Shown piece by piece: positions 4,892-18,862 of a stretch of 20,000 bases of DNA. Numbering within the stretch: the stretch's first letter is position 1; every line of letters begins with the position of its first letter. A program made the position numbers and the translations under genes. The stretch comes from an uncultured virus (IMG/VR IMGVR_UViG_3300019874_000003). Lineage: Duplodnaviria; Heunggongvirae; Uroviricota; Caudoviricetes. The stretch is from the IMG/VR virus record IMGVR_UViG_3300019874_000003; one strand, given 5' to 3'. The notes under the pieces are model-generated. The model made no database searches, was not told where the DNA came from, and worked only from the letters and a program-made list of their open reading frames with translations.

Positions 4892-5294
4892 GCGACAAGA
4901 CCGGCATCGAGTGGACGGACGCCACCTGGAATCCAGTGCGCGGCTGCTCGCGCCCGCCATCTCGAGCTTGTTCGATGAAGCGCGCATCGAAGTACAAGCG
5001 CCGGCCTCGTGACCTACATTACATGGCATGGATCCGTCGCCAGCCGTGCGCTGCTCGTGCGCTCACCGAGGGCCTCGCGCATACCTGCGATGGTTCAGTG
5101 GAGGCCGATCACGCTGGCAGGCGCTGCGTTGGGCAGAAGGCCGAGGATCGCACGTGCATCCCTCTGTGCTCTCACCATCACGCGCAGCGCGCGAGCTTCC
5201 ATGGGGTATTCAAATCTTGGAACCAGGCCAAGATGCGCGCATGGCTGACCGCACTGGTTCTCAAGTATCAACTCATGTACGACCTGGAGCATCA

Positions 5295-5298
<4 letters not shown>
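4888..5298 (+). CDS. HNH/Zn-finger nuclease-like protein (DUF968/Ref-like) with a remnant DUF5131 (Gp37Gp68) N-terminus
   Basis: MSDKTGIEWTDATWNPVRGCSR is the hallmark start of DUF5131 proteins. It is followed by YMAWIRRQPC..C..VEADH..GQKAEDRTCIPLCxxHH. An alternative ATG lies at 4975. Confidence 0.7.
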
Positions 5299-5978
<680 letters not shown>

Positions 5979-6683
5979 ATGTCAGTTCGGCTGCCCATGC
6001 TCATGACCACCAAGGAGGCCGAGGCGATCGCTGGCGCCTTGGGACACCCCAGCAAGATGCCGGGGTTCTCCTACGGCATCAGCGCCCAGAAGTGCCAGAC
6101 CGGCGCCAAGCTGCGCGGCGTCGCCGGGTCCGTGTGCTCGGGCTGCTACGCCATGACCGACTGGTACCGTAGTTGGAGGCCGCTACTCCAGGGCCATGAG
6201 CGCCGCTGGAACGGGCTGCGCCACCCCAGGTGGGTGGACGCCATGGTCTCGATGGTAACCCGCGCATGCCAGCCGCCTGACAATTACTTCCGGTGGCACG
6301 ACTCGGGCGATCTGCAGGGCCTGTGGCACCTTGAGAACATCGTCGCCGTATGTGAGCGCACGCCCGAGGTGAAACACTGGCTGCCGACGCGCGAATACGC
6401 CTTCGTGGAGGGGTTTCTTGCCAGCGGCAAGACGCCACCCGAGAACCTCGTGATCCGGCTATCGGCCCACATGATCGACTCCGAGCCGGTGGTACCCGCC
6501 GCACTGGTCGGCATGCCGACGTCGGCGGTCGCGAGCGTGCCGTTCAGCTCGAGTGGCGTACGGGTGGTGGAGGGTAAGGGATCGATCGAATGTCGTGCGG
6601 TAGAGAGCCGCGACAACAAGTGTGGCGACTGCCGAGCGTGCTGGGATGCACGCGTCGTGTGCGTCACGTACCCGCAGCACTGA
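5979..6683 (+). CDS. GP88-like phage protein (Cys-rich, radical-SAM-like Fe-S)
   Basis: SKMPG, C..CSGCYA, YFRWHDSGDLQ, HWLPTRE, NLVIRLSA and CGDCRACWD motifs. Confidence 0.8.
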   Translation: MSVRLPMLMTTKEAEAIAGALGHPSKMPGFSYGISAQKCQTGAKLRGVAGSVCSGCYAMTDWYRSWRPLLQGHERRWNGLRHPRWVDAMVSMVTRACQPPDNYFRWHDSGDLQGLWHLENIVAVCERTPEVKHWLPTREYAFVEGFLASGKTPPENLVIRLSAHMIDSEPVVPAALVGMPTSAVASVPFSSSGVRVVEGKGSIECRAVESRDNKCGDCRACWDARVVCVTYPQH

Positions 6684-6694
6684 AGGAGATAGCA

Positions 6695-7126
6695 ATGAAG
6701 GTCTACGTAGCGAGTTCGTGGCGCAATGAGCATAAGCAGCAGCTCATGGTTCAGGTATTGAGGGCAGCTGGCCATGAAGTGTACGACTTCCGGAACCCAG
6801 GGCCCGGAAACTCCGGGTTCTCGTGGAAGTCGATGTCAGGGCCGTGGGAGTTGCAGGATGGGGCGCGGTTTCGTAGCCATGTGCTTCAGCACCCGGTCGC
6901 ACAGGCAGCATTCGCGCTCGATATGGCGGCGCTCCGAGCCGCTGACGCCACGGTGCTGGTGCTCCCATGCGGTCGCTCGGCTCATCTCGAACTCGGTTAT
7001 GCGACCGGGGCCGGTCAGCGCACTATCGTGTTCCTGGACGAACCGATCTCCGAGCCCGAGCTCATGTACCTCATGAACACGAAGATCTGCATCTACATTG
7101 GCGAGGTCGTCGACGCGCTGATGTGA
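6695..7126 (+). CDS. Nucleoside 2-deoxyribosyltransferase-like protein
   Basis: AAGGAG RBS; MKVYVASSWRN, YDFRNP, D..AL..AD..VLVLPCGRSAHLELGYA.GAG. Confidence 0.8.
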   Translation: MKVYVASSWRNEHKQQLMVQVLRAAGHEVYDFRNPGPGNSGFSWKSMSGPWELQDGARFRSHVLQHPVAQAAFALDMAALRAADATVLVLPCGRSAHLELGYATGAGQRTIVFLDEPISEPELMYLMNTKICIYIGEVVDALM

Positions 7127-7611: not shown

Positions 7612-7941
7612 GTGATCGTCAGACCGGACAGGTACGAAATGGGTATGTATCGCGCGTCCGCCGCTCAGGCTGAGGTGACACTGTCCATCGAGGTCGTCTG
7701 CCATCACTGCCAGCGTCCACGGGAGCGCTCCGACCGCGCGCTGGTCGACGTATTCTTGGTCATGGATCCAGGCATCGACGGCGTGCCATGGATGCTGTGC
7801 GGAAGATGCTGGTTAGCCTACCTGAAGTTTGAGGGCAACCTGGCTGCGATCGGTGGCAGGGTGCTCGAGTTGCCAGTGGCTACGACGATCGAGATCGCGA
7901 AGCCCGCCCCCGGGCCTTCCGCGAGGCCCCCTACGCCGTAG
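7612..7941 (+). CDS. Zn-finger hypothetical protein
   Basis: CHHC...CGRC; start codon uncertain (7612, 7639 or 7645). Confidence 0.55.
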   Translation: MIVRPDRYEMGMYRASAAQAEVTLSIEVVCHHCQRPRERSDRALVDVFLVMDPGIDGVPWMLCGRCWLAYLKFEGNLAAIGGRVLELPVATTIEIAKPAPGPSARPPTP

Positions 7942-8004
7942 AGGTGGCTCTAGACCTTGAACTAGAGAGATGATGGCACGTCGTTCGCCATCAGCGCGGC
8001 GCCC

Positions 8005-8034
8005 TTGAACTTACCGCCCGGATGGGGGTACCCT
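8005..8034 (+). promoter_or_regulatory. Putative promoter TTGAAC-N18-TACCCT
   Basis: Lies upstream of the ATG at 8051; the same architecture recurs at 10781-10810. Confidence 0.4.
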
Positions 8035-8050
8035 AGTGACACGGAGAACC

Positions 8051-8665
8051 ATGGCCCGATCCAAGATGCATCGGCGATACGTCAAGAGCAACCCGGGGCC
8101 CAAGAGCAACCCGCCGTTGTTCACCGAGCTCCTGGAGTTCGCCGGCCCTGGTTTCGGCGCCTTTGCGGCAACCAGACTGGGGACGCGCATCGCAGCCACG
8201 CAGGTTGAGAAGTGGAAGCCCTCCTGGGGGAAGCACGCCGGCGCCGTCGCGTCGGTCTCGGCGTTCCTGGCGGCCTGGTTCCTTGGTCACCGGGTGAAGT
8301 TCCTCGCGAAGTACCACACGCCGATCACAGTGGGGGCGGGGATTGCGATGGCGCAGTCGCTGATTCAGCTCTACATCCCTCAACTCGGCTGGATGGTCGC
8401 GGATGCCACGCCCGAGCTCGCGGCGACCGCGGCAAGCAACCTGACCTCGGATGCGACCATGCTGACGGCGAGCAGCGACCTGCAGCCGACGGACGATGAC
8501 CCCAACGAGTTCACGTACAACGACCAGTTCGATGCCGGCCGGTTCAGCAAGATCAACCAGTCCCCAGGGCAGAGCCCGCCGTTCGTCGCGCCGCACGACA
8601 GCGCAGATGTTGCGATCGACGATGCAATCGGACAGAGCGCCAACCTGGGCGTGTTCTCGAACTGA
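8051..8665 (+). CDS. Membrane-associated protein, possibly virion
   Basis: GGAG RBS; basic N-terminus with KSNP x2, three hydrophobic segments and an acidic tail. Confidence 0.75.
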   Translation: MARSKMHRRYVKSNPGPKSNPPLFTELLEFAGPGFGAFAATRLGTRIAATQVEKWKPSWGKHAGAVASVSAFLAAWFLGHRVKFLAKYHTPITVGAGIAMAQSLIQLYIPQLGWMVADATPELAATAASNLTSDATMLTASSDLQPTDDDPNEFTYNDQFDAGRFSKINQSPGQSPPFVAPHDSADVAIDDAIGQSANLGVFSN

Positions 8666-8667
8666 CC

Positions 8668-9177
8668 GTGCAGGCCCCGGAGGCACTGTTCCACGGCTCA
8701 AAGGCTCGACTCGAGGTCGGCGCCGCGCTTCACGCGCGCCGTACACCGAACGGAACCTTCGGGAAGGGTCTAGAGACGTTTGTCGAGTCGCTGCGACCGC
8801 CAAAGTGCTCGTCGCGGCTCGAGTCGTTCTACATGGTGGATGACCCTAGGTTGATCCGTGTAGCCGGTGGGGTGCAGAACTTCATCTACCGCCTCGAGCC
8901 GTTCGGCATGTTCTCGAAGCATAATCAGGGCTGGTTGAGTCGGATCTACGACGCGCTGATCTATCACTTCATCGGTCGCGAGGTGCTCAGCGGGGACGAG
9001 CTTCATGGTCGCCTGCGTGCAGCGGAGGCGTGGGCATGGAAGTACTGGGACGGGTCGCCGTGTCCGGATCTGCGCCCGCCCAATGTGGAAGTGTGGGAGT
9101 ATCTGGCATCGGACGTGCTCGTCGTGGCATGCGAATACAACGGCGAGTGGTGGTCCGCGGACATCGAAGAGGAGTGA
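8668..9177 (+). CDS. ADP-ribosyltransferase-fold protein (Arr/DUF2441-like)
   Basis: LFHGS..L.VG, E.LRP...SRL.SFY, IYRLEP.G, KYWDG and WEYL motifs. Confidence 0.6.
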   Translation: MQAPEALFHGSKARLEVGAALHARRTPNGTFGKGLETFVESLRPPKCSSRLESFYMVDDPRLIRVAGGVQNFIYRLEPFGMFSKHNQGWLSRIYDALIYHFIGREVLSGDELHGRLRAAEAWAWKYWDGSPCPDLRPPNVEVWEYLASDVLVVACEYNGEWWSADIEEE

Positions 9178-9179
9178 CT

Positions 9180-9518
9180 ATGTCATACCACCAGAAGCAA
9201 CGCGCTCTTGTGATCCGCCGCCCGCGGTCAATGGGGTCGATCGTGAGCCAGCCGACGAGTCAGCCGGTGTCGCGGCTTGCGGTCCAGCTTGGCTCGCTGG
9301 GTGACGACGCCGCCCCGGGAACCACGCTGTCGGATCCGACGATCGCGGACCCGACGTCAGTGTGGCAAGACAACGTGCTCGCCCAGCTCGCGGCTGGCGT
9401 GAAGACGCTGCAGATGGCCGAGATGCAGAAGTGGCTCCAGATCGCAGCCACGCTCTCGATCCCGCTGGCGGCGGCGGTGTGGAAAATGATCTTCAAGCGC
9501 GGTGCTGATATCACGTAG
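9180..9518 (+). CDS. Small protein with a C-terminal membrane anchor
   Basis: GAGGAG RBS, ATG at 9180; WLQIAATLSIPLAAAVWKMIFKR. Confidence 0.7.
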   Translation: MSYHQKQRALVIRRPRSMGSIVSQPTSQPVSRLAVQLGSLGDDAAPGTTLSDPTIADPTSVWQDNVLAQLAAGVKTLQMAEMQKWLQIAATLSIPLAAAVWKMIFKRGADIT

Positions 9519-9573
9519 CGTGCGTGGATACCGGGGTGTAGGAATAGGCGTCTCCTGTGATACGGTTGCCGCC

Positions 9574-10653
9574 ATGCCGCCGACGAAGCCCAGAATGCCA
9601 GGATCTCAGGTCGCGCCCAACGAGAGGCCGCAGCAGCATGCGAACCGCCGCACGGCGACGACGCACAGCCGGGTGCCGCTTGCGCAGGCGACCGCTGGCC
9701 GCACGTATCGAGTTCGCGACAAGGGATGGGTCAAGGTGTGGGGAGAAGGGTTGACCTGGGATGACGCGGTGAAGCTCAAGAATGGGGTGGTGGGTTCGAA
9801 GAAAAGTCGGACAGCCCGCGTCGAGGATGAGGCGATCCCGCCGCCCGCAGGATACGTGGCGGCGCCGCAGCCGAGCGCTGATGCGCTGGCGATCACGAGC
9901 GCCGTGGTCGCGGCTGGAGCACCGGCCGAGTACACGTACACGACGATACGCCAGGACGACGGTCAGTTCGCCGGTCTCGTTCAGGAGTTCCGCTCGTTGT
10001 CCTGGCTGGCCGATACCAAGGCGGAGGCGCTCGAGGGAATCAGGATGCTCGTCACGGATACCCTCGACGAGATGGACAAGGCTGGAGAGGTTCCGCCGCC
10101 TCCCGCAGGCACGGGCGATAACGCGAGGCCGTCCCTCGAGCTCGCCAACGATCAGTTGGTGATCGTCCCGGTGAGCGGAGTGATCCGCAAGATCCCAGCG
10201 GGCCACGAGCTCGTGGTCAACGGATTCACCCAGCCGGTCCCGGTAAGCGTCACGCAGGGCGACTCGGTGCAGGCTCGACCAGTGGACCCGGTCATCATCG
10301 CAGCGCGCGCATCTGCGAATGCGGCGGTCCGCCAGGTGCTGCAGCAGCGCCGTATCTATCGCGACGTCACCGCGACGCCGCCGGCCAAGCCGAACCCGAA
10401 CCCGCCCAAGGATCCCACGGTGTCCAAGGGCGGCGTGTACATCCGTCTGGGAGCTCCGGCGCAGCCCGTGACAAAGCCCCCGGCATCCCCGCTCAAGGTC
10501 GCCACCTTGCAGGATGGCGAGGCCTTGGGCGACGATGCGCTCACGGATGACGACCTGCCTGACCTCGCTGGTGATATCGGCGGCGGCGCCTCGGATGCCG
10601 ACCTCGAGCACGCGAGCAAGGTGCGCGAGGCCGAGGCCGCGAAGCGCGGGTAA
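9574..10653 (+). CDS. Pro-rich multidomain protein with an internal HicB-like domain
   Basis: Probable ATG at 9574; YTYTTIRQDDGQFAGLVQEFRSLSWLADTKAEALEGIRMLV..EVPPPP at ~9931-10104; acidic C-terminus. Confidence 0.75.
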   Translation: MPPTKPRMPGSQVAPNERPQQHANRRTATTHSRVPLAQATAGRTYRVRDKGWVKVWGEGLTWDDAVKLKNGVVGSKKSRTARVEDEAIPPPAGYVAAPQPSADALAITSAVVAAGAPAEYTYTTIRQDDGQFAGLVQEFRSLSWLADTKAEALEGIRMLVTDTLDEMDKAGEVPPPPAGTGDNARPSLELANDQLVIVPVSGVIRKIPAGHELVVNGFTQPVPVSVTQGDSVQARPVDPVIIAARASANAAVRQVLQQRRIYRDVTATPPAKPNPNPPKDPTVSKGGVYIRLGAPAQPVTKPPASPLKVATLQDGEALGDDALTDDDLPDLAGDIGGGASDADLEHASKVREAEAAKRG

Positions 10654-10780
10654 CCGTTCGGGATTGCGGTCGGCTCGGAATCGACTGGCCTATGACCCCA
10701 CCTAGGATAGTGGGGCGTCCCGACCCGTTTAGTGCCAGCCCAGAGGAATCTGAGACATGCTTCCGAGCCGGCAAATGGGA

Positions 10781-10810
10781 TTGCACCCAATCCGGAACCA
10801 GTAGTACCCT
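10781..10810 (+). promoter_or_regulatory. Putative promoter TTGCAC-N18-TACCCT
   Basis: Ends 7 nt before the ATG at 10818, which has no RBS (leaderless-like). Confidence 0.4.
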
Positions 10811-10817
10811 GCTTGGC

Positions 10818-11177
10818 ATGGCATTCACAGGCACCCCCGTCGTCACGCAGATCTCGGACAGCATCGTCCGCATCACCGGGTTGTCGCTGGCGGCGGCCGC
10901 CGTCGGCACGATCGGACTCACGGGTGCCACAGGCACCGCGCCCGGCGTCACGCTCCCGGAGTCGTTCAAGACCCTGCACTACACGTACGCTGGAGCGAGC
11001 GTTCCATTCCAGGACTGCATCGACGTCTCGGTGGGATTCTCGACGGTGGTCGGCCAGACCCCGCCGATCGCGGTGGTCAAGACGGGGACCACCGTCGCCG
11101 ACTTCCGGGCGACGCTGACCAACGGATTCGCGTCGGTCTCATCCGGGCTCGAGATCTACGTCAAGTTCCACAACTAG
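10818..11177 (+). CDS. Thr/Gly/Val-rich beta protein, likely virion structural
   Basis: 119 aa, MAFTGTPVV...LEIYVKFHN; composition typical of structural proteins. Confidence 0.65.
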   Translation: MAFTGTPVVTQISDSIVRITGLSLAAAAVGTIGLTGATGTAPGVTLPESFKTLHYTYAGASVPFQDCIDVSVGFSTVVGQTPPIAVVKTGTTVADFRATLTNGFASVSSGLEIYVKFHN

Positions 11178-11219
11178 GCGGCAACAGCCCGGCGTAGCCG
11201 GGACCGTGACACCGTAGAA

Positions 11220-11630
11220 CTACGCAGCCTGAGCGGTGACCATACGAATGCGCTCCCATGCCAAAACCGGGTCCGCGCTCGCCCAGAACGCGAGTGCCGA
11301 CCGCGTGGCACCAATGCCGGCGACCTCGAGAACGCCACGGGCCGCCGCCGCCAGAAGCTCCATGGCGTAGACGATGGGCGCTGCGTTGACGCCGAACGGT
11401 ACCGGCAACGTGCGCAGGCCGCTTGACCATGACTGCTCATGCCGCGCGAGGTCTGCACATGCGCGCTGCATCACATCCGGGCCGCACCGGTCCGCGACCA
11501 GGCGGACAACGCCAAGCAGGCACCGCGCCGCGCCACGTGCGGTGACGGCATCCGGCGGCGACACATCCACTGCGAGCGCCATGGAGCGGAGGTCGTCGAT
11601 GTTGTTCTTCCAGTGCGCGATCGTGGGCAT
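11220..11630 (-). CDS. Hypothetical helical protein
   Basis: ATG at 11630 with AGGAG RBS and an upstream promoter. Confidence 0.65.
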   Translation of the reverse strand: MPTIAHWKNNIDDLRSMALAVDVSPPDAVTARGAARCLLGVVRLVADRCGPDVMQRACADLARHEQSWSSGLRTLPVPFGVNAAPIVYAMELLAAAARGVLEVAGIGATRSALAFWASADPVLAWERIRMVTAQAA

Positions 11631-11658
11631 CTCAGGTCTCCTTCTGGGGGTTCCTCGC

Positions 11659-11711
11659 AAGATGGAGGCGCGGCTGCGCCATGTCAAGTCATAACTTGCC
11701 ACTGTCAAGTC
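11659..11711 (-). promoter_or_regulatory. Sigma70-like promoter with direct repeats
   Basis: TTGACA (11687-11682)-N17-CATCTT (11664-11659); TGTCAAGTC repeated at 11682-11690 and 11703-11711. Confidence 0.5.
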
Positions 11712-11755
11712 GGCCGCAGCCGACGACCGCACGTCCTGGTGATTGGGGTACCAGG

Positions 11756-12304
11756 CTACCGTCGAAGCCTGCCGAACACGGACGACGCGAGGCCGATGCC
11801 GTCCACGCCGGATGTAATCACGCCGACCAGATGGCCGTTGTCGTCGTAGAGCGCGGCGCCGGAGTTGCCGGGTACAGTGCGGATGTCCAGCGCCAGATCG
11901 ACCTCACCGTGAGGCGTTCCCACGGGGCGTATCTCGGTGATGTGACCGCAGCGACGTTCCCTGGCCGGCAGCGCAACCTCAGCGCATACGGCATCGCCGA
12001 CGTCCGCGGCATCGGTCACGGCTTCATCGCCGTGAAGGTCGGTGACCAGCAGTGCCAGGTCGTGGCCGTCGTCCCGCCAGGCGAGGTGATGAGCGGACAG
12101 GAGTTGGCCCACATCGGTTGTGATGGCAGAGCCGTCACATGCCACGTGGCTCGCGGTGAGCACGAATCCATCGCCGATATCTGCGCCGCTTCCACCGCAC
12201 GGCTCAAGCGCCACAGCCGCAGCGTGCTGTTGCTGGACGGTCCATGCCGGCGGCGGTTCGATGTGAGCATCGTCATAGGTACAGCCACAGACAAGTGCGG
12301 CCAT
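11756..12304 (-). CDS. Trypsin-like (S1) serine protease, lipoprotein-like
   Basis: Catalytic triad motifs VLTASHV, HDLALL and PGNSGAAL..G.LVGV; lipobox-like LVCGC; true start uncertain. Confidence 0.85.
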   Translation of the reverse strand: MAALVCGCTYDDAHIEPPPAWTVQQQHAAAVALEPCGGSGADIGDGFVLTASHVACDGSAITTDVGQLLSAHHLAWRDDGHDLALLVTDLHGDEAVTDAADVGDAVCAEVALPARERRCGHITEIRPVGTPHGEVDLALDIRTVPGNSGAALYDDNGHLVGVITSGVDGIGLASSVFGRLRR

Positions 12305-12339
12305 TATCGCTAAGCTTAACCTTAGTTCGCTAGGTCTCG

Positions 12340-12738
12340 ATTTCGATCGATCGGGCATCGAGCAGCCATTGTTATATCGAGAGGTCGTAACGGTCACGTC
12401 TTGTTTGGCCTGTCTCGATCGTTCTGGCATCGAGCAGCCATTGTTACCGCCGAGCTCGCGCACGCCCACCGTGCGAGCATGATCGTCTCGATCGATCGGG
12501 CATCGAGCAGCCATTGTTACATCGGCAATCTGCGCGAGCTGCGAGGTGATCTGATTGTCTCGATCGATCGGGCATCGAGCAGCCATTGTTACAACTGTTG
12601 CCAACGGCGGGAAGCTCTCAGATTGCTGGTCTCGATCGATCGGGCATCGAGCAGCCATTGTTACCCGCGTAGGTCTCGCGTCATGAGCGAACCACCTTCT
12701 ACGTCTCGATCGATCGGGCATCGAGCAGCCATTGTTAC
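12340..12738 (-). CRISPR. CRISPR array, 6 x 36-bp repeats, 5 spacers (36, 37, 36, 36, 38 bp)
   Basis: Repeat (+) GTCTCGATCGATCGGGCATCGAGCAGCCATTGTTAC at 12340 (3 mismatches), 12412 (2 mismatches), 12485, 12557, 12629 and 12703, with unique spacers. Degenerate copies at the low end imply - strand orientation. Stem CTCGAT/ATCGAG near the 3' end. Confidence 0.97.
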
Positions 12739-12778
12739 AGCGGGTTGGAAATATCGTGTCATCTCGCTGAGATACAAC

Positions 12779-13717
12779 TCAGGTTTCGAGCGGTCTGGTC
12801 GTTGTGCTCGCCGAACGCGCCGTTCGCAGACGCTGCGACCGAGATGGCTTCGCGATCGCCGACTTAGCGGTGCGAGCGGTCTCCGGAGTCTCCTGCGCAT
12901 TGGCCCACTCGAGTAGGAGATTGCGGCAGGCATTCGCATCCTGGTCGACACGCAGGCCGCACGCCGGGCAGGTACGCTCACGCCCGGTGTTGACGGACTG
13001 GTCCCACGCCTCATCGACATGACCGCAACTGTAGCACCGGCGGGTCACGTCGTTGGACGACATCTTCTCGACGCGGCCGTGGAACGCGTTCATGAGCACC
13101 TGACGAAGCTCGCTACCAGCGACCAGGCTTTGGTTGTTCTTCACGAGCGGGATGCCGTCGACCTCCTCGGACTCCGGGGCCGGCGATCGCTTGAGCTCGG
13201 CGAGGTCGGTATCGTCGATCACCAGCGTCCGATAGCGCTGGCAGAGGTTGGAGGCCAGGATGCGGTAGCCCTCCCGGCGGCGCAGGAGCGCCCGGCGGCG
13301 CATCCCGGTCTCGTATGGCTCAAGGTGGTTGTCGCGGTAGCGCCAGGCATCCAAGGCTTCATACCCAACCTCGTCACCGTGGAAGCGCGCCACGCGCCAG
13401 CGCTGCGCGAGCTTGCGGAACCGGTCCGCCGAGCGCCAGGCGTGCAGGTGCGGCTTGATCTCCGCCAGCCAGGGCGGCAGCGCCGGGCCGCCAGCGCGGA
13501 TGTACGCTCCGACGCGGCCCCATGGGTGGTCGGCACAGGCGATCGGGATCGGTGCGGGAGCTGATGCGGTCGTCACCCCTCGCTGCAACCGCGACGACCA
13601 CCAACGCAGCGTACCCACCTTGATTCCTTCACGCGCCGCGAACACCGCCGCGGTCTCGCCACTTGCTCTCCACTTCGCGACGCGTTTCTGCCAGGTGACC
13701 TTCGCTGCATTTGCCAT
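12779..13717 (-). CDS. Fusion: IS66 TnpA N-terminus (aa ~1-60) + C-terminal half of a Cas12m/type V-U1-like TnpB-family effector
   Basis: HLHAWRS..F..LA.RWR, AWRYRDNHL..YE...RRRALLRRRE.YR, RuvC-II-like LVIDDTDL, Zn finger CYSC/CPAC and RuvC-III DQDANACRNLL; no RuvC-I, WED or REC region; adjacent to the array. Confidence 0.8.
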   Translation of the reverse strand: MANAAKVTWQKRVAKWRASGETAAVFAAREGIKVGTLRWWSSRLQRGVTTASAPAPIPIACADHPWGRVGAYIRAGGPALPPWLAEIKPHLHAWRSADRFRKLAQRWRVARFHGDEVGYEALDAWRYRDNHLEPYETGMRRRALLRRREGYRILASNLCQRYRTLVIDDTDLAELKRSPAPESEEVDGIPLVKNNQSLVAGSELRQVLMNAFHGRVEKMSSNDVTRRCYSCGHVDEAWDQSVNTGRERTCPACGLRVDQDANACRNLLLEWANAQETPETARTAKSAIAKPSRSQRLRTARSASTTTRPLET

Positions 13718-13778
13718 CGGATCTCACCGTGCCGTCTCCCGCGCGATCGCGCCAGAACGCTGTTCGTGCAGCGGATAC
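13538..13778 (-). mobile_element. IS66-family left-end remnant
   Basis: Begins GTATCCGCTGCACGAAC at 13778 (IS66-type terminus). An ATG 61 bp inside encodes W.KRV..WRASGETAAVFAAREGIK..TLRWW..RL (TnpA HTH). No tnpB/tnpC or right end seen. Left boundary approximate. Confidence 0.75.
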
Positions 13779-14734
13779 CCCGAGATGGCGCGCGACAGCC
13801 AGCGCCGTCTCGCCCGCGTCTTCCGCCAGCGTTGCCTGCGTACGCCGCAACGCCTGGGGCGGCAGCACCGGCACCTTGGCGGCGTCGGCGATGCGCCGCA
13901 CGTGGTTGTAGGCCATGTACCGCGACCACCGCCGTCCGGCGGGCCAGCGCCGCGATGCCTCCGACACGAACAGCGGCGCATCACCCGGCCGGCCCTCCGC
14001 GAGCGCCAACAGGTACGGCCGGAGCTCGTCCGGAATCAACAGCCGGCGCGTCCCCGCCCCCGTCTTGGTGCGACCGATCCACAGTAGCCGGCCTTCATCG
14101 TCCAAGTCGCGCACGTCGCGCTTCACCAGCTCCGAGGCGCGCGAACCGAGCAGCAGATACGCCAGCGTGATCACCGCGCCAGCGTCGGTCGCGGCGTACT
14201 TGTGGCAATGTGCCTGCAGCTGCCGCGATTCATCGACGGTCAGACGTGGCTTGTCCGCACCTTCGACCTTCCGACCCACGGCCTCGACCTCGGCGAACGG
14301 GTTCGCCCGGAGCATCCGCTGCTTGACGCACCAGGCGCCCCAGTCCTTGGCGACCGCGAGCGCGTTCTGGTGCGTGTCGGCCGCGCGCGGCTTCCCCTCC
14401 CGGCGATGCCCCTTCGGGTAGACCCGGGCCTGCACGTAGAGCTCGGCGCCGCGGCCGAGAACCGCGCGCACCGGGCGCGGCATCAACGGCCCCAGGATCA
14501 TCGCGAGCCGGTCCTCGGCGCTCTCCACGCTGGACTCCGCCAGCTCCCGCTCGCGCTTCCAGGCGAGGAACCGGTCGACAGACTGCTTCACGGTGACGCC
14601 TTGCGCCTCGTCACGCGCCCCGGCGATGAACGCGTCGGCAAGATCCCGCGTTGCAAACGTCTGATAAAGCGTCTTCCGTTTTCCTCCGCGTCGAGTAACG
14701 ACGTGGACGCGGAACTGGTTGAAGTACTCGTTGG
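13779..14734 (-). pseudogene. Tyrosine recombinase/integrase, truncated
   Basis: LLGSRASEL (R), TKT (K), PQALRRT and ARHLG are present, then the sequence switches to the IS66 end with no catalytic Tyr. The frame extends upstream of GTG 14591 through an arm-binding-like segment without a start codon. Confidence 0.8.
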
Positions 14735-15655
14735 CTATTCGATCGACCCTTGTGCGATAGCCTTAGTGGCGGTGGGGAGGTCAGCGGCGATTTGCACGTC
14801 TGCTTCCTCGGGCGAGTACTGGTCCAACATCAAACGAGTCGTCGCAACGTAGTCCGCAACCGAAAGGTTAGTGACGTTGAAAAACGCGACGCGGATGTCT
14901 ACGACAGAGCCGCCCTTAACGACCACAACATCATTCAGCCAACCACTGAGAATTGCCTCTGCCTCGGCAGTGAATTCGATGGTCGAGCTGACGATCAACA
15001 AGAAATCGATCGTCATGCTCGAAGCGGCACCTGATGAATGGAACCGGATTTCTTCGATGTCGTTGAGTAGCTGTTTAAGCTTTGTGGTCTCGGCTTTCTC
15101 CTTCTCGCGCTTCTTCATCACGGAGTCGAGGGACTTCACGATCTGCTTGTGAACAGCCTTGACGATGTGGTCGGGGATCGCGGGGCGATTGTATCGCCCC
15201 GCGACCCACTGAGCGAAACGAAGCCGCTCCGGATCAGTAGAGAACACCGTCGCGAAGCCTACAGCGACAAGAGACTCCTTTCTCAGGTGCGCTCGGCGTC
15301 TCGCATCAGCAAGCAGTGCCCGCTCGTTCGCCTCAGTGAGCAAGAAGAGACGCGACGAATTGCCCTTCCGAGCTTGTAGGATTTCGGTCGGGTCAGTTGA
15401 CCAACGTGCTGTTACGACTTCGACGCACGGCTCAACCTCAGGACGTGCGTAGATGTCGCAGTCTTGTGAAACGAGGACCCACTCAGCATCAGTGTCAGCT
15501 TCGATCTTGGCGACCCACTTCGGCAGAGCGTTTGGCTCGTCCTCAGTATCCGTCTCCAGCCACAAGGTATGTGCTGCAGTCTTCACAAGAGATCCTTGGC
15601 GGCACCCGCGGGACAGAAGTACTTCTCCGACACTTTGGCTTTGTGGGCTCGGCAC
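14735..15655 (-). CDS. Conserved-looking hypothetical protein (RQGS / SQDCDI / RYNRPAIPD motifs), candidate toxin or defence protein
   Basis: 306-aa ORF, visibly lower GC than its flanks, GAGG RBS, 8 bp downstream of the HTH gene. Confidence 0.75.
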   Translation of the reverse strand: MPSPQSQSVGEVLLSRGCRQGSLVKTAAHTLWLETDTEDEPNALPKWVAKIEADTDAEWVLVSQDCDIYARPEVEPCVEVVTARWSTDPTEILQARKGNSSRLFLLTEANERALLADARRRAHLRKESLVAVGFATVFSTDPERLRFAQWVAGRYNRPAIPDHIVKAVHKQIVKSLDSVMKKREKEKAETTKLKQLLNDIEEIRFHSSGAASSMTIDFLLIVSSTIEFTAEAEAILSGWLNDVVVVKGGSVVDIRVAFFNVTNLSVADYVATTRLMLDQYSPEEADVQIAADLPTATKAIAQGSIE

Positions 15656-15663
15656 TCAATACC

Positions 15664-16338
15664 TCATTTCACAGACTCGTCGTCGTCCTCGAATTGCGCC
15701 GAGGGACTTAGTCTCTCGCGCGCCAGCCGACGCTCGAACACACTCATCGATGGTTGAACCATCGGTGCCTTGACTTGCGAGAAACCGGACATTGGCGAAC
15801 CGGCTCTAACGACTAGCCCACGGAACACAGAAAACTGTTGCTCCTTGATGTACTGCAGCGGGGACTTCCCCCCCGCTGCGATGGGCGTGCGGAGCCAAGT
15901 CGGGAGATCGATGATTCCGTCGAGCTTCTTCTTTGCGTCCTTAATGTGATTGAGCGCTTCCACTAGGTGCGTGAACGCTTCTTCCCGCGGCGTAGCTCCT
16001 TCCATCCAGTTGTAGAAGGTTGTCCGTGACACACCGAAGACCTGAGCGAGCTGTTGGGGAGTAAGACGAGAGGCCGTCCGTAGCTCCTCGGCGGCTGTAA
16101 GAATTTCGTTCTTGCGAAAGTGCGTAACGTTCGCCGGTGAAATTCGTCGCTGCTGCTTCACGATCACAAAGGCATCATCGCCGTCCCAGCTGTCGGTCGC
16201 CCAGCCGTTGACGCGAAGCACGCCCTGGCTGCCGCCGATCTGTTTGTCGAACGCCTTGAGCAGTAGCCGCTCCTCGTCGATCTCCGGATCGAACCTGATG
16301 GCTAGCTTGCCGTCGATCTCGATGAAGGTTGCGCGCAT
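15664..16338 (-). CDS. XRE-HTH protein with an Xre/MbcA/ParS (DUF2384)-like C-terminal domain
   Basis: LRTASRLTPQQLAQVFGVSRTTFYNW (HTH) and WLRTPIAAGGKSPLQYI. Confidence 0.75.
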   Translation of the reverse strand: MRATFIEIDGKLAIRFDPEIDEERLLLKAFDKQIGGSQGVLRVNGWATDSWDGDDAFVIVKQQRRISPANVTHFRKNEILTAAEELRTASRLTPQQLAQVFGVSRTTFYNWMEGATPREEAFTHLVEALNHIKDAKKKLDGIIDLPTWLRTPIAAGGKSPLQYIKEQQFSVFRGLVVRAGSPMSGFSQVKAPMVQPSMSVFERRLARERLSPSAQFEDDDESVK

Positions 16339-16342
16339 GGGG

Positions 16343-17131
16343 TTAGAACTCGCCGAGCGACAGGATGACTCCGGCGGCGGCCGGGGTGACGGTGACTGTC
16401 CCGCCGGCTCCGCGAGGGCGCGTGAGGAACCGGAACGCGACCGCTGTGATGCTCTCGCTGTCGAGGCTGAGTCCGTGGAAGTACACCGACACGTTGGTCG
16501 CGTTGATCCAGACCGTCTCGCCCAGCTCGTTCGTGCCAGACCGGTACGCCCTGATGGAGCCGCCCTCTATCGTGACGCGCAGGCGCATGGGTCGATCGCC
16601 GCCTGCCTCGAGCTCATCGGTGCAGAGGCAGGCGGCATCGCTCTCGGACACCATCGAACGAGCGGTGTGCGGGGTGATGGCGAAGTTGAGCGCGAATGTT
16701 TGGAGGAGCGCGCCCGCGAACGGAGCCGGGGCAAAGGAGGCCACGGATGGCGTCCGCGGATCGCCGCCGAGGAACTTGTACGGCGCGGCCTTGATCTCGG
16801 CGAGCATCGCATCGCGGCCGGCCTGGTGGCCCACCTGACGGGCATCGTTCAGCACGGCGGCGAAGCGCGCGTCCTCGTGACCGGCGACCCCGCCGGCTGC
16901 GGCGCGCTCGATCGCGTGCAGCCGATCAAGCGTGGCGCGCAGCTCGGCGCGGTCGAGCTCGATCACGACTTCGAGCCGATCGGCGAGCTTGCCCATAAGG
17001 GTAAGGGCTTCTACGCCGTCCGGCCCCATGGCGAGCCGCGCGCTCTCGGGGGCCTTTCGCATGCTCTCGGAGAGCGCACGAGCGGCGAGGATCAAGCGTT
17101 CGTCATAGGGCAGTTGTGACCAGATGCTCAT
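16343..17131 (-). CDS. Hypothetical protein
   Basis: ATG at 17131 with AAGGAG RBS; 262 aa. Confidence 0.7.
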   Translation of the reverse strand: MSIWSQLPYDERLILAARALSESMRKAPESARLAMGPDGVEALTLMGKLADRLEVVIELDRAELRATLDRLHAIERAAAGGVAGHEDARFAAVLNDARQVGHQAGRDAMLAEIKAAPYKFLGGDPRTPSVASFAPAPFAGALLQTFALNFAITPHTARSMVSESDAACLCTDELEAGGDRPMRLRVTIEGGSIRAYRSGTNELGETVWINATNVSVYFHGLSLDSESITAVAFRFLTRPRGAGGTVTVTPAAAGVILSLGEF

Positions 17132-17166
17132 GTAACTCCTTGAAATCACGTAATTCTGTGTGGATA

Positions 17167-17194
17167 GTGGTACTAAATTAGTATTTAGTACCAC
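17167..17194. promoter_or_regulatory. Perfect palindromic operator-like site
   Basis: GTGGTACTAAAT-TAGT-ATTTAGTACCAC in an AT-rich island upstream of the ATG at 17131. Confidence 0.75.
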
Positions 17195-17391: not shown

Positions 17392-17889
17392 TCATCGTGC
17401 GCGGCCTCTAGCTGCGCGCTTCCGGTCATCGGCATCAAGCCACCGTTGCAACATAGCCTTCGACGCGTTCAGGCGCCGGATGGTCGGCGTGTAGTCGAAG
17501 CACCCTGCCTGGCGCGCGACGTCATTCGCCGGACCCGGATGGACCTCGACGAGCGCGCCGCACCTCCGCGCGAGCTCGTGGAACTCGGCGTCGGAGCCAA
17601 TGCAATCGCCGTGGTGTGACGTGATCAGGATGTCGAACCCGCCTAACATCGCGAGGAGGAACGCGACTTCGCTGTGCTGGTTGTCCGTCATGCCGAACCT
17701 GGTTCCGGTGAACCCGATGTGCTTCCTCACCGCGCCTGGCGGATCGGTGTGGATGTTCCCCTTGGTGAACATGTGACCGCCACGCCCGCAGTCGACGTAC
17801 GGCTTGCCAGGGGAAGGATTCTGGCAGTCCCGCTCGGGCGCTCCGAATCGGTCCCCGCAGTTCAGGCAGAAGCTCAGTCGCTCGATCAC
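17392..17889 (-). CDS. Zn-ribbon + partial SLOG/YspA-like domain protein
   Basis: CLNC..C..C..H, then IGFTGTR.GMT..Q, HHGDCIGSDAEFH and VEVHP. Confidence 0.65.
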   Translation of the reverse strand: MIERLSFCLNCGDRFGAPERDCQNPSPGKPYVDCGRGGHMFTKGNIHTDPPGAVRKHIGFTGTRFGMTDNQHSEVAFLLAMLGGFDILITSHHGDCIGSDAEFHELARRCGALVEVHPGPANDVARQAGCFDYTPTIRRLNASKAMLQRWLDADDRKRAARGRAR

Positions 17890-18068
17890 TTTCGGCTCCG
17901 GTCGATGAGTTTCTGCCCCTCGCGGATCGTGATCTTCTTGGCCAGTTCGGCCTCTTCATCGTCGAGGTCATCCCATAGCCCAGTGTCACCATCAGGGTGA
18001 GACCTGAGGAGACATCCGAGGTAGTTCAGCGTCTGCGCTCGGACTTCTGCAATTCGCTTTCCAGTCAT
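17886..18068 (-). CDS. Hypothetical protein
   Basis: 60 aa from ATG 18068, overlapping both neighbours. Confidence 0.6.
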   Translation of the reverse strand: MTGKRIAEVRAQTLNYLGCLLRSHPDGDTGLWDDLDDEEAELAKKITIREGQKLIDRSRK

Positions 18069-18862
18069 GGCAACCTCCTGAACGTCACCGCCCACACGAA
18101 CGGGTTGGACCCCCACGAGGCGCGCTTGGCGTTGAGCGAATCCCACAACGTGGCGTAATGAGCTCGCGGGCACGGCGCGCTACTGATCGCGACCCCGGGC
18201 AACAGCGCGCCGACCCATGCGATCTTGCCGCCGCGGATCCGCAGCGACAGGCCGCCTTCGGCGACCGGCTCCGGATCGGTGCCGGTGCACCCCTCTGCCA
18301 GCGCGTCCTCCACGGTGATCGCCTTCAGCCGCTGCACGCGGACCTCGGTAACCTCGAGCTTGATGCGCGACGCCCAGCGCGGCATGAAGATGGACGGCCG
18401 CCATGGCGATCGGTCACCGCCGCTCGGCCGCTGGCTGCCGTCCGACCGAACGATGTCCTTGTCGGTGGCCCGGTAGAACGCGAAGTGCTTGCCGCCGCCC
18501 TCGTAGCTGTCTGGTCCACGCGGCCGACCGTCGCTGTGATACGCGCCCTCCATCGAGTCCTCGCTGGCGAGGCACCAGGTCTCGCGGACCCACAGGTGAT
18601 CGCCAACCTCTCCGTACGGGCACGGGATCGAGACCAGCCCGTGGTTGTGCTGTTCGTTGTGGCCACGCCCGAGCACCATGTAGCCGTTGTGGGCCGGGCC
18701 GTCGAAGAAGTATCCCCACTCCGACGGATCATCCTCGCTGCCTCGCGGTCCGATGTGGCTCAGCGGATGCCGCGTAGTCGCGATCCGCCTAGTCTGCGTC
18801 TTGGTGTCGTCGAGCAACGGTGGGATCATCGATCCGGAGAACAGGATCGGGCGCTCCTTCAC
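18065..18862 (-). CDS. ASCH/PUA-like phage protein
   Basis: MKERPILFS, KTQTRR, CPYG..GD.LWVRETW, WRPSIFMPRWASRI.LEVT.VRVQRL and NPFVW.VTF. Confidence 0.85.
   Translation of the reverse strand: MKERPILFSGSMIPPLLDDTKTQTRRIATTRHPLSHIGPRGSEDDPSEWGYFFDGPAHNGYMVLGRGHNEQHNHGLVSIPCPYGEVGDHLWVRETWCLASEDSMEGAYHSDGRPRGPDSYEGGGKHFAFYRATDKDIVRSDGSQRPSGGDRSPWRPSIFMPRWASRIKLEVTEVRVQRLKAITVEDALAEGCTGTDPEPVAEGGLSLRIRGGKIAWVGALLPGVAISSAPCPRAHYATLWDSLNAKRASWGSNPFVWAVTFRRLP

Follow-up and report, generated by a model that had tools for sequence, protein, structure and literature searches.

An in-frame IS66 TnpA-Cas12m chimera at a type V-M locus of a phage-like element, a probable product of recent deletion

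Insertion sequences (IS) of the IS66 family carry the genes tnpA, tnpB and tnpC in about 2.5 kb, start with GTAA at their ends and generate 8-bp duplications. Cas12m groups the effectors of the type V-M CRISPR systems and is represented by the structures 23vw_A, 8PM4 and those of Cas12m2 from Mycolicibacterium mucogenicum (8HHL/8HIO). The excerpts of PMC10442227 place in the N-terminal half of Cas12m2 the residues Y141, W152, N156, Q195 and Q197, which read the protospacer-adjacent motif (PAM), and locate the contacts with the scaffold of the CRISPR RNA (crRNA) at H269 and R270 of the WED domain; the same half includes RuvC-I (H317). A phage Cas12m, called the first of its kind, is described for the myxophage MV-1 in the excerpted part of bioRxiv 10.64898/2026.09.14.751636; this protein is intact, with 610 amino acids (aa) and the catalytic set D-E-D. 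We have analysed a stretch of 20,000 nucleotides (hereafter the window) from the uncultured virus record IMGVR_UViG_3300019874_000003 (Caudoviricetes), in which an IS66-family tnpA runs in frame into the 3' part of a cas12m gene. The resulting chimeric open reading frame (ORF), named P0001, encodes 312 aa on the minus strand (12779..13717) and consists of 58 TnpA codons, 254 Cas12m codons and a stop. The analysis makes it very probable that a recent illegitimate deletion has left an IS66-Cas12m fusion pseudogene together with an orphan type V-M array, as a decayed locus on a phage-like element. This is ordinary gene decay and not the birth of a new protein family.

Each of the described systems resembles the locus in one part and departs from it in another. 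As far as the MV-1 excerpt goes, both cases associate a Cas12m gene with an adjacent array on a virus-like element, without adaptation genes, and the neighbours in the window are of phage type (GP88, phrog_12607 and an integrase); contrary to MV-1, the effector of the window is truncated, and the window is not demonstrated to be viral. The first 58 codons of the chimera and the 61 nt upstream derive from an IS66 element with a TnpA of the ISAeme5 type, of which the window has kept no more than the left end and 54% of tnpA, without tnpB, tnpC or right inverted repeat; this end starts with GTAT and not with GTAA. As in the degenerate CRISPR-Cas loci and orphan arrays that arise by insertion of an IS and deletion, an effector gene has been destroyed by the activity of a mobile element and the array has survived. 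Contrary to those loci, the deletion ends inside the IS and not at its tip, and leaves an open fusion frame.

The 312-codon frame opens with an ATG at 13717 on the minus strand, is preceded by a TGA two codons 5' of this ATG and ends at 12779. In the public protein collection the gene is present once, as P0002 (288 aa, with a start at aa 25), on a contig of 76,447 bp. Residues 8-61 are recognized by the NCBIfam model NF047593 'IS66_ISAeme5_TnpA' (E 1.9e-9, 37.9 bits, profile positions 5-58 of 79), an equivalog model with a cut-off of 28 bits; no Pfam helix-turn-helix (HTH) family matched the TnpA part at E up to 0.1. The residues 80-268 align with residues 381-568 of the 577 of the Cas12m structure 23vw_A (E 1e-27), and the residues 92-275 with residues 413-593 of the 596 of Cas12m2 8hio_A (E 6e-10). 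The PADLOC model Cas12u1, which keeps a former name of type V-M (also formerly V-U1), matched P0001 exclusively at profile positions 345-532 of 533, and PF07282 (Cas12f1-like TNB) spans aa 214-267 with a score above the cut-off (E 6e-7). The NF047593, structure and PADLOC matches bear out the initial annotation of this DNA, made from the sequence alone, which had described a 312-aa ORF with a TnpA-like head and a Cas12m-like tail. The tail had been placed at aa ~68-312; its identity stands, but its start lies at aa 59.

The tail (12779..13545, minus strand) represents the 3' part of cas12m, from codon 377/378 to codon 631, and contains RuvC-II, the TNB zinc ribbon, RuvC-III and the C-terminal tail of the effector. 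BLASTP aligned aa 57-312 of P0001 with the residues 376-631 of an intact protein of 631 aa (P0004), with 254 identities out of 256 and no gaps, and aa 59-312 correspond to Cas12m residues 378-631. P0004 is a full-length Cas12m, as the Cas12u1 model covers its residues 1-592 (profile positions 1-532 of 533, E 5.5e-86) and 23vw_A its residues 6-587 (E 4.7e-59). Like the genes of 23vw_A, Cas12m2 and 8PM4, the parent gene encodes about 600 aa, belongs to type V-M and has an array directly downstream. When longer proteins were searched, all the 42 matches covered just the C-terminal 60-93% of P0001.

The tail has kept the aspartates D168 of RuvC-II ('VIDDTDL') and D260 of RuvC-III ('DQDANA'), as well as the zinc-ribbon residues C228, C231, C250 and C253, whose columns are occupied by Cys or His in 27-28 of 28 relatives. 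The residues 1-377 of Cas12m, which correspond to WED, REC1, REC2 and RuvC-I, are gone and are replaced by 58 aa of TnpA. The position of RuvC-I is N302 of P0004, aligned under 'DLG' of 23vw_A; it lies 5' of the break at residue 377/378, in agreement with the earlier statement that the N-terminal half and RuvC-I are absent. P0001 has neither the end-to-end homology nor the WED/REC lobes nor the complete split RuvC of a Cas12m effector, and it retains the TNB zinc ribbon within RuvC and the adjoining array without adaptation genes. The PAM and crRNA residues of Cas12m2 cited above all fall in the part that is gone, and three of the strands of the RNase H core, as they are delimited in the excerpts of PMC10442227, are missing as well. 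A product of P0001 would thus probably have no RNase H core and be unable to hold a crRNA or to read a PAM and, having lost one of the three RuvC segments and the RNA-binding lobe, it would not be expected to work as a Cas12m. The break itself sits in an indel-rich column of the family alignment, with a gap in 15-16 of 28 sequences. In the same clade, the three RuvC positions (302, 487 and 579 of P0004, alignment A1) are N-D-D in 27 of the 28 relatives. The sets listed for the Cas12m clades in the excerpts of PMC10442227 are HEK/HQK, HDD, DED/NED and DED/DND/NED, Cas12m2 being H-D-D; N-D-D is not among them and suggests, from residue identity, another DNA-binding and non-cutting branch of Cas12m.

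Concerning the head (13546..13717, minus strand), it extends from the start codon to codon 58 of tnpA, includes the HTH and amounts to 54% of a gene of 108 codons, as judged from NF047593 and from the intact TnpA P0186. The first 58 residues are those of P0186 (108 aa; E 4.6e-11 against NF047593) with the exceptions G47E and S52A, and are thus 97% identical to a family of stand-alone TnpA proteins of 108 aa. After residue 58, P0186 reads M-V-Q-L and P0001 reads I-A-C-A-D-H. A search with the first 70 aa recovered 32 TnpA relatives of 84-120 aa, thirteen of which have exactly 108 aa. The chimera has therefore kept the N-terminal 58 of 108 TnpA residues, which pass the NF047593 cut-off, with a complete HTH part (aa 8-46), and has lost the C-terminal 50. 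The possibility that the HTH is a native Cas12m-associated domain was ruled out by the 97% identity to stand-alone TnpA and by its presence in none of 183 Cas12m relatives. In plasmids, a distant blastn search with 13500-13830 gave no match, and tblastn with the 62-aa head gave one weak match, in Skermanella (43% over 37 aa, E 6e-4). In viral contigs, the single match to the TnpA alignment has 22 aa (L089) and was not used.

The limits of the two parents were determined with Logan contigs from four runs (X1-X4). In an independent soil sample (X3), a contig of 795 nt matches 13183-13545 with one difference and then continues with unlike sequence. On the minus strand and in the cas12m frame, this continuation reads E-A-H-D-K-A-V-A-I, which are the residues 368-376 of P0004; X3 thus enters an intact cas12m, and the homology of the window to this gene ends at 13545/13546. 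The X3 contigs cover 12754-13150 and 13183-13545 with one difference each, i.e. 2 of 760 nt (99.7% identical), one leading to E247G and the other being silent; X3 has no contig cover at 12336-12753 and 13546-16000 and was not used there. On the other side, the TnpA relatives read P-I-P-M at the place where P0001 reads P-I-P-I, and since their codon 59 is a Met codon, the tnpA parent fits the window no further than 13542. The junction is consequently contained in 13542..13545, where a microhomology of 1-4 nt (CGAT on the minus strand) fits both parents, the exact overlap depending on the third base of the parental Pro codon. The interval ~13515-13540 first proposed for the junction has to be corrected to this position.

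These contigs also bear on the idea of an assembly chimera, whose two halves the assembler would have put together although no single molecule ever carried both. The metagenome is of low depth (~7x in the spanning contig) and a second run of the same sample (X2) leaves 13522-13580 uncovered, which would fit such an artefact. Against it, X1, a separate Logan assembly, contains a contig of 6144 nt that runs over 12710-16000 with 0 differences and bridges both breakpoints. No loose ends were seen at the junction in X1 or X2, and the depths on the two sides of the gap of X2 are alike (4.7 and 3.7). The sequence shared by the parents is at most 4 nt, far under any assembly word length and thus too short for a k-mer assembly to mis-join. 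Moreover the breakpoints are biologically sensible, with an IS end in one gene and a microhomology at the other. Judged from the contigs, an assembly chimera is extremely unlikely.

The second breakpoint is situated upstream, in a tyrosine-integrase gene of the same strand. Codons 1-271 of this gene occupy 13779..14591 (PF00589, phrog_1) and are cut before the segment that bears the catalytic Tyr. The ORF itself extends over 13629..14591, its last 49 codons (13778-13629) being a read-through into the IS. PF00589 was detected at aa 116-254 (profile positions 2-138 of 172) and phrog_1 at aa 67-271; the homology stops at aa 271, and codon 271 ('...HLG') ends at 13779. A related integrase from a leaf-litter sample (X4, used at 13779-14704 only) is ~95% identical over this interval and diverges exactly at 13779. 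Its frame continues beyond '...R-H-L-G' with H-A-T-A-A-A, and the final catalytic segment of tyrosine recombinases usually begins with 'LGH...'. The integrase of the window has no complete catalytic domain with the C-terminal His/Trp...Tyr segment, and no PDB match was obtained for it by sequence. From the divergence of X4 and the end of the integrase profile at 13779, it follows that 13778-13718 is the left end of the IS, and that an IS66-family element has inserted in the 3' part of the integrase gene. The tyrosine integrase of the element is inactivated by this insertion and its catalytic tail has been removed; if this is the element's own integrase, integration or excision by it is no longer possible.

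The left end (13718..13778, minus strand) is noncoding and corresponds to the 61 nt located 5' of the tnpA ATG, up to the divergence of the X4 integrase at 13779/13778; the end coordinate 13778 of the initial annotation coincides with it. The left inverted repeat and the expression signals of tnpA are presumably contained in it. Its first 21 nt have no inverted copy in the window at up to 3 mismatches, the single match being the sequence itself. The right inverted repeat was not found in the window either, and tnpA runs directly into cas12m. Among the 25 window ORFs scanned with Pfam, there was no tnpB, no tnpC transposase and no IS66 family match. The IS66 element of the window is dead. A promoter scan returned 0 sites, the scan being uninformative at this G+C. 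Two other candidates were rejected: a 17-nt piece of the IS end had three exact matches, beside which neither further homology nor TnpA was present, and is attributed to chance, as is an Rfam hit to c-di-GMP-II-GAG at 13639-13704, which is under the threshold (21.7 bits against 40, E 0.79).

The breakpoints being placed, a single event would be enough to connect them. After the IS66 insertion, one illegitimate deletion guided by the microhomology, with tnpA codon 58/59 and cas12m codon 377/378 as its end points, would have removed the rest of the IS, the tail of the integrase gene, whatever intervened and 1129-1133 nt of cas12m (~60% of the gene); with an IS66 element of about 2.5 kb, the total loss probably exceeds 3.5 kb. 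As the deletion ends inside the IS and not at its tip, it was probably not made by the transposase, which points to illegitimate recombination. By a chance in-frame join, for which the prior is 1 in 3, the tnpA start codon would now open a frame of 312 aa with the TnpA HTH as head and Cas12m as tail. The model proposed as simplest in the initial annotation, an IS66 insertion followed by a deletion with a fortuitous in-frame join, agrees with the cut integrase, the interruption of tnpA, the X3 and X4 contigs and the single occurrence of the fusion described below. Since the remnant differs from an intact gene at only 2 of 760 nt, the event is recent, and the open frame gives no information on selection. 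A product of P0001, should there be one, would most likely be that of a pseudogene, inert or unstable.

Whether the deletion occurred in place or whether two replicons were joined was evaluated from the related loci. These were collected via alignment A1 (8 and 80 loci, 88 in all), the best being only 54% identical; with P0004 as query no loci were obtained in metagenome or viral contigs, and with P0005 none in genome contigs. The window genes at 7612-11732 follow the same order as those downstream of cas12m in L009, L014 and L010. At 4-5 kb upstream of cas12m, L021 and L022 contain homologs of the ORFs 17392-17889 and 18065-18862, these five loci being metagenome contigs with an intact cas12m. 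In an alternative scenario, the chimera would result from an illegitimate recombination between two DNA molecules, an IS66-hit integrase of another prophage or of the host chromosome and a Cas12m-bearing element, the product being a pseudogene in this case too. This scenario would account for the different continuations of the other samples at the breakpoints (intact cas12m in X3, intact integrase in X4), for the absence of integrase and TnpA homologs from the flanks of the 88 related cas12m loci, for the ORFs 14735-15655, 15664-16338 and 16343-17194 being without homologs in these loci, and for the change of G+C from 0.70 over 13501-14500 to 0.56-0.59 over 14501-16000. Yet the genes on both sides of the join are syntenic with those of relatives with intact cas12m, so that the join lies within the backbone of one element family, and the insertion of an integrase module upstream, with a local deletion afterwards, needs fewer steps. 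The recombination between two molecules is therefore considered unlikely, and the synteny of both flanks favours a deletion in place. The lack of integrase and TnpA near the 88 cas12m loci then indicates that the integrase module is particular to this element. In viral contigs, no loci were found with the integrase or with the neighbouring 170-aa protein as query.

The fusion was detected only once. The collection searched holds about 15 billion proteins. A search for proteins of near length examined 3855 candidates and retained two, the protein of the window and P0003, which starts inside Cas12m on a contig of 1190 bp and is a contig-edge fragment. The exhaustive HMMER search gave 2955 matches at E up to 0.001. 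Among the best 150 of these, the match is interior or C-terminal in proteins of mostly ~600 aa, and six start before aa 59: P0118 (15), P0065 (25), P0060 (38), P0024 (49), P0059 (53) and P0154 (57). These six align inside proteins of 600-780 aa, so that the alignments are prolonged along Cas12m and do not represent a TnpA head. With phmmer at E up to 10, no Cas12m relative out of 183 matched the 58-aa head, and no TnpA relative out of 32 matched the 254-aa tail. The region 12300-14700 had no megablast match among phages and plasmids, and a literature search on IS66-truncated Cas12 found nothing related. The initial annotation had suggested looking for the same fusion in independent genomes, a single occurrence beside intact relatives speaking against a function and full-length homologs with this N-terminus against an accident. 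The fusion occurs once, intact relatives exist for both parents, which argues against a function, and no full-length homolog with a TnpA N-terminus was found, which leaves the accident model standing.

A functional new protein would consist of an IS-derived HTH and a lobe with RuvC-II, zinc ribbon and RuvC-III, expressed from the tnpA signals; it might be a DNA-binding regulator or a dominant-negative partner of the intact Cas12m of related elements. Several features are compatible with such a protein: the frame is open over 312 codons with the native tnpA start and the upstream IS end, the TnpA HTH is complete, and the zinc-ribbon cysteines and both kept RuvC aspartates are intact. They are outweighed by the single occurrence, by the 99.7% identity of the DNA to the intact gene, at which an open frame is silent on selection, by the chance of 1 in 3 for an in-frame join, and by the loss of three of the RNase H core strands and of all the crRNA- and PAM-binding parts of the Cas12m2 type (as delimited in the PMC10442227 excerpts). 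RNA runs containing the sequence amount to 0 of 24 rows. A function of this kind is accordingly held to be very unlikely. We give scarcely any credence to a translated chimera acting in trans, which would poison or titrate the Cas12m of co-infecting relatives or bind IS66 ends, the array being served by the Cas12m of a relative of the X3 type. A functional chimera would be a natural protein combining an HTH with a partial RuvC, and nothing found points there.

The deletion in place is thus preferred, with some observations weighing against it. No integrase or TnpA homolog was found near cas12m in the 88 related loci. The evidence for the junction consists of contigs only, and the sample of the bridging contig is probably the source of the window, so that X1 is not independent. 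The contigs of X2 end at 13521 and start again at 13581, and neither bridge nor contradict the join; the interval 13522-13580, without contig cover in X2, was not used as evidence. Finally, P0001 is free of internal stops and has kept the native tnpA start, with a plausible stretch for ribosome binding, which makes its translation possible.

The CRISPR array (12340..12738, minus strand) starts 40 nt after the cas12m stop and contains 6 repeats, each of 36 nt, with 5 spacers of 36-38 nt between them. Four repeats are perfect, the fifth has two mismatches and the sixth is degenerate with extra bases. Arrays are found at the same position in relatives, with repeats that also end in ...CGAGAC (~30 repeats in L056 and 3 in L009), and a predicted 3' hairpin is kept via paired changes (CUCGAU/AUCGAG in the window, CUCGGC/GCCGAG in L056). 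Among the 16 window ORFs of at least 110 aa given to PADLOC, there was no Cas1, Cas2 or Cas4 match. No credible target was found for the spacers among phages or plasmids, where the best match is one of 26 nt in Cupriavidus (E 0.4), nor in the window or in 89 loci beyond the spacers themselves. The array is an orphan, at least in cis. In X2, a contig passes directly from 12342 to 12706, without the 363 nt in between and with 32 letters that fit either side, which brings the array down to a single repeat; this is either a real loss, due to recombination between repeats in a fraction of the population, or a collapse of the assembly. Two long, mechanically called ORFs, 11756-12721 (minus) and 12401-12916 (plus), cross the array, the repeats being translated as a recurring 'MAARCPIDRD'. 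In the first one, the real gene is probably only the part 11756-12313, which encodes a trypsin-like protease (PF13365, E 1.1e-7; phrog_9683, E 1.2e-15) between the array and a gene of 170 aa; this protease has no homolog in the 88 related loci.

The 170-aa ORF (11220-11732, minus strand) belongs to no Pfam, PHROGs or PADLOC family and gave nothing usable in Atlas. Its homologs are located directly 3' of cas12m and of the mini-array in L009 (8283-8621), L010 (3404-3649) and L014 (8213-8569), with a weaker one in L016. From this position, the gene may have a conserved accessory role in this clade of Cas12m.

Upstream of the integrase, the region 14735-16338 (minus strand) encodes a protein of 224 aa with an Xre-type HTH (PF13560, E 7e-6) followed, after 9 nt, by an ORF of 306 aa of no family. 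The 224-aa protein scores 25.6 bits with PF20432 'Antitoxin Xre-like HTH', just under the cut-off of 25.8. The G+C is lower here (0.56-0.59) than in the integrase (0.70), and this region may be a separate cargo module. Elsewhere, the window encodes GP88 (PF17338, 5979-6683), a nucleoside deoxyribosyltransferase (phrog_12607, 6590-7126), a Dam-like methyltransferase and an HNH-like protein, in addition to the integrase and the trypsin-like protease. With this set of predicted genes, the window looks like a part of a phage-like mobile element; no gene for a capsid, a terminase or another structural or packaging function was identified in the 20 kb of the window, which alone does not demonstrate a virus. 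An imperfect tandem repeat rich in GCC/GAC (5419-5627; periods 18, 24 and 33; ~6-11 copies with 81-84% matches) is included in an ORF without family match (5028-5978), and a perfect heptamer, GGATCCC, is repeated in 4.9 copies at 1628-1661. The syntenic Cas12m contigs L014, L021 and L022 measure 86,414, 86,338 and 85,350 bp, and that of the window 76,447 bp; the contigs of ~85 kb are of nearly equal length and may represent the complete genomes of one family of mobile elements or phages that carry a type V-M locus.

The chimera calls for caution in the reading of annotated genomes, since an open frame with two recognizable domains can be an IS accident only days old that gene callers report as a protein. 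It also documents the loss of the type V-M locus of a mobile element, in which the two breakpoints are placed to the base and the intact form of each parent is found in public data.

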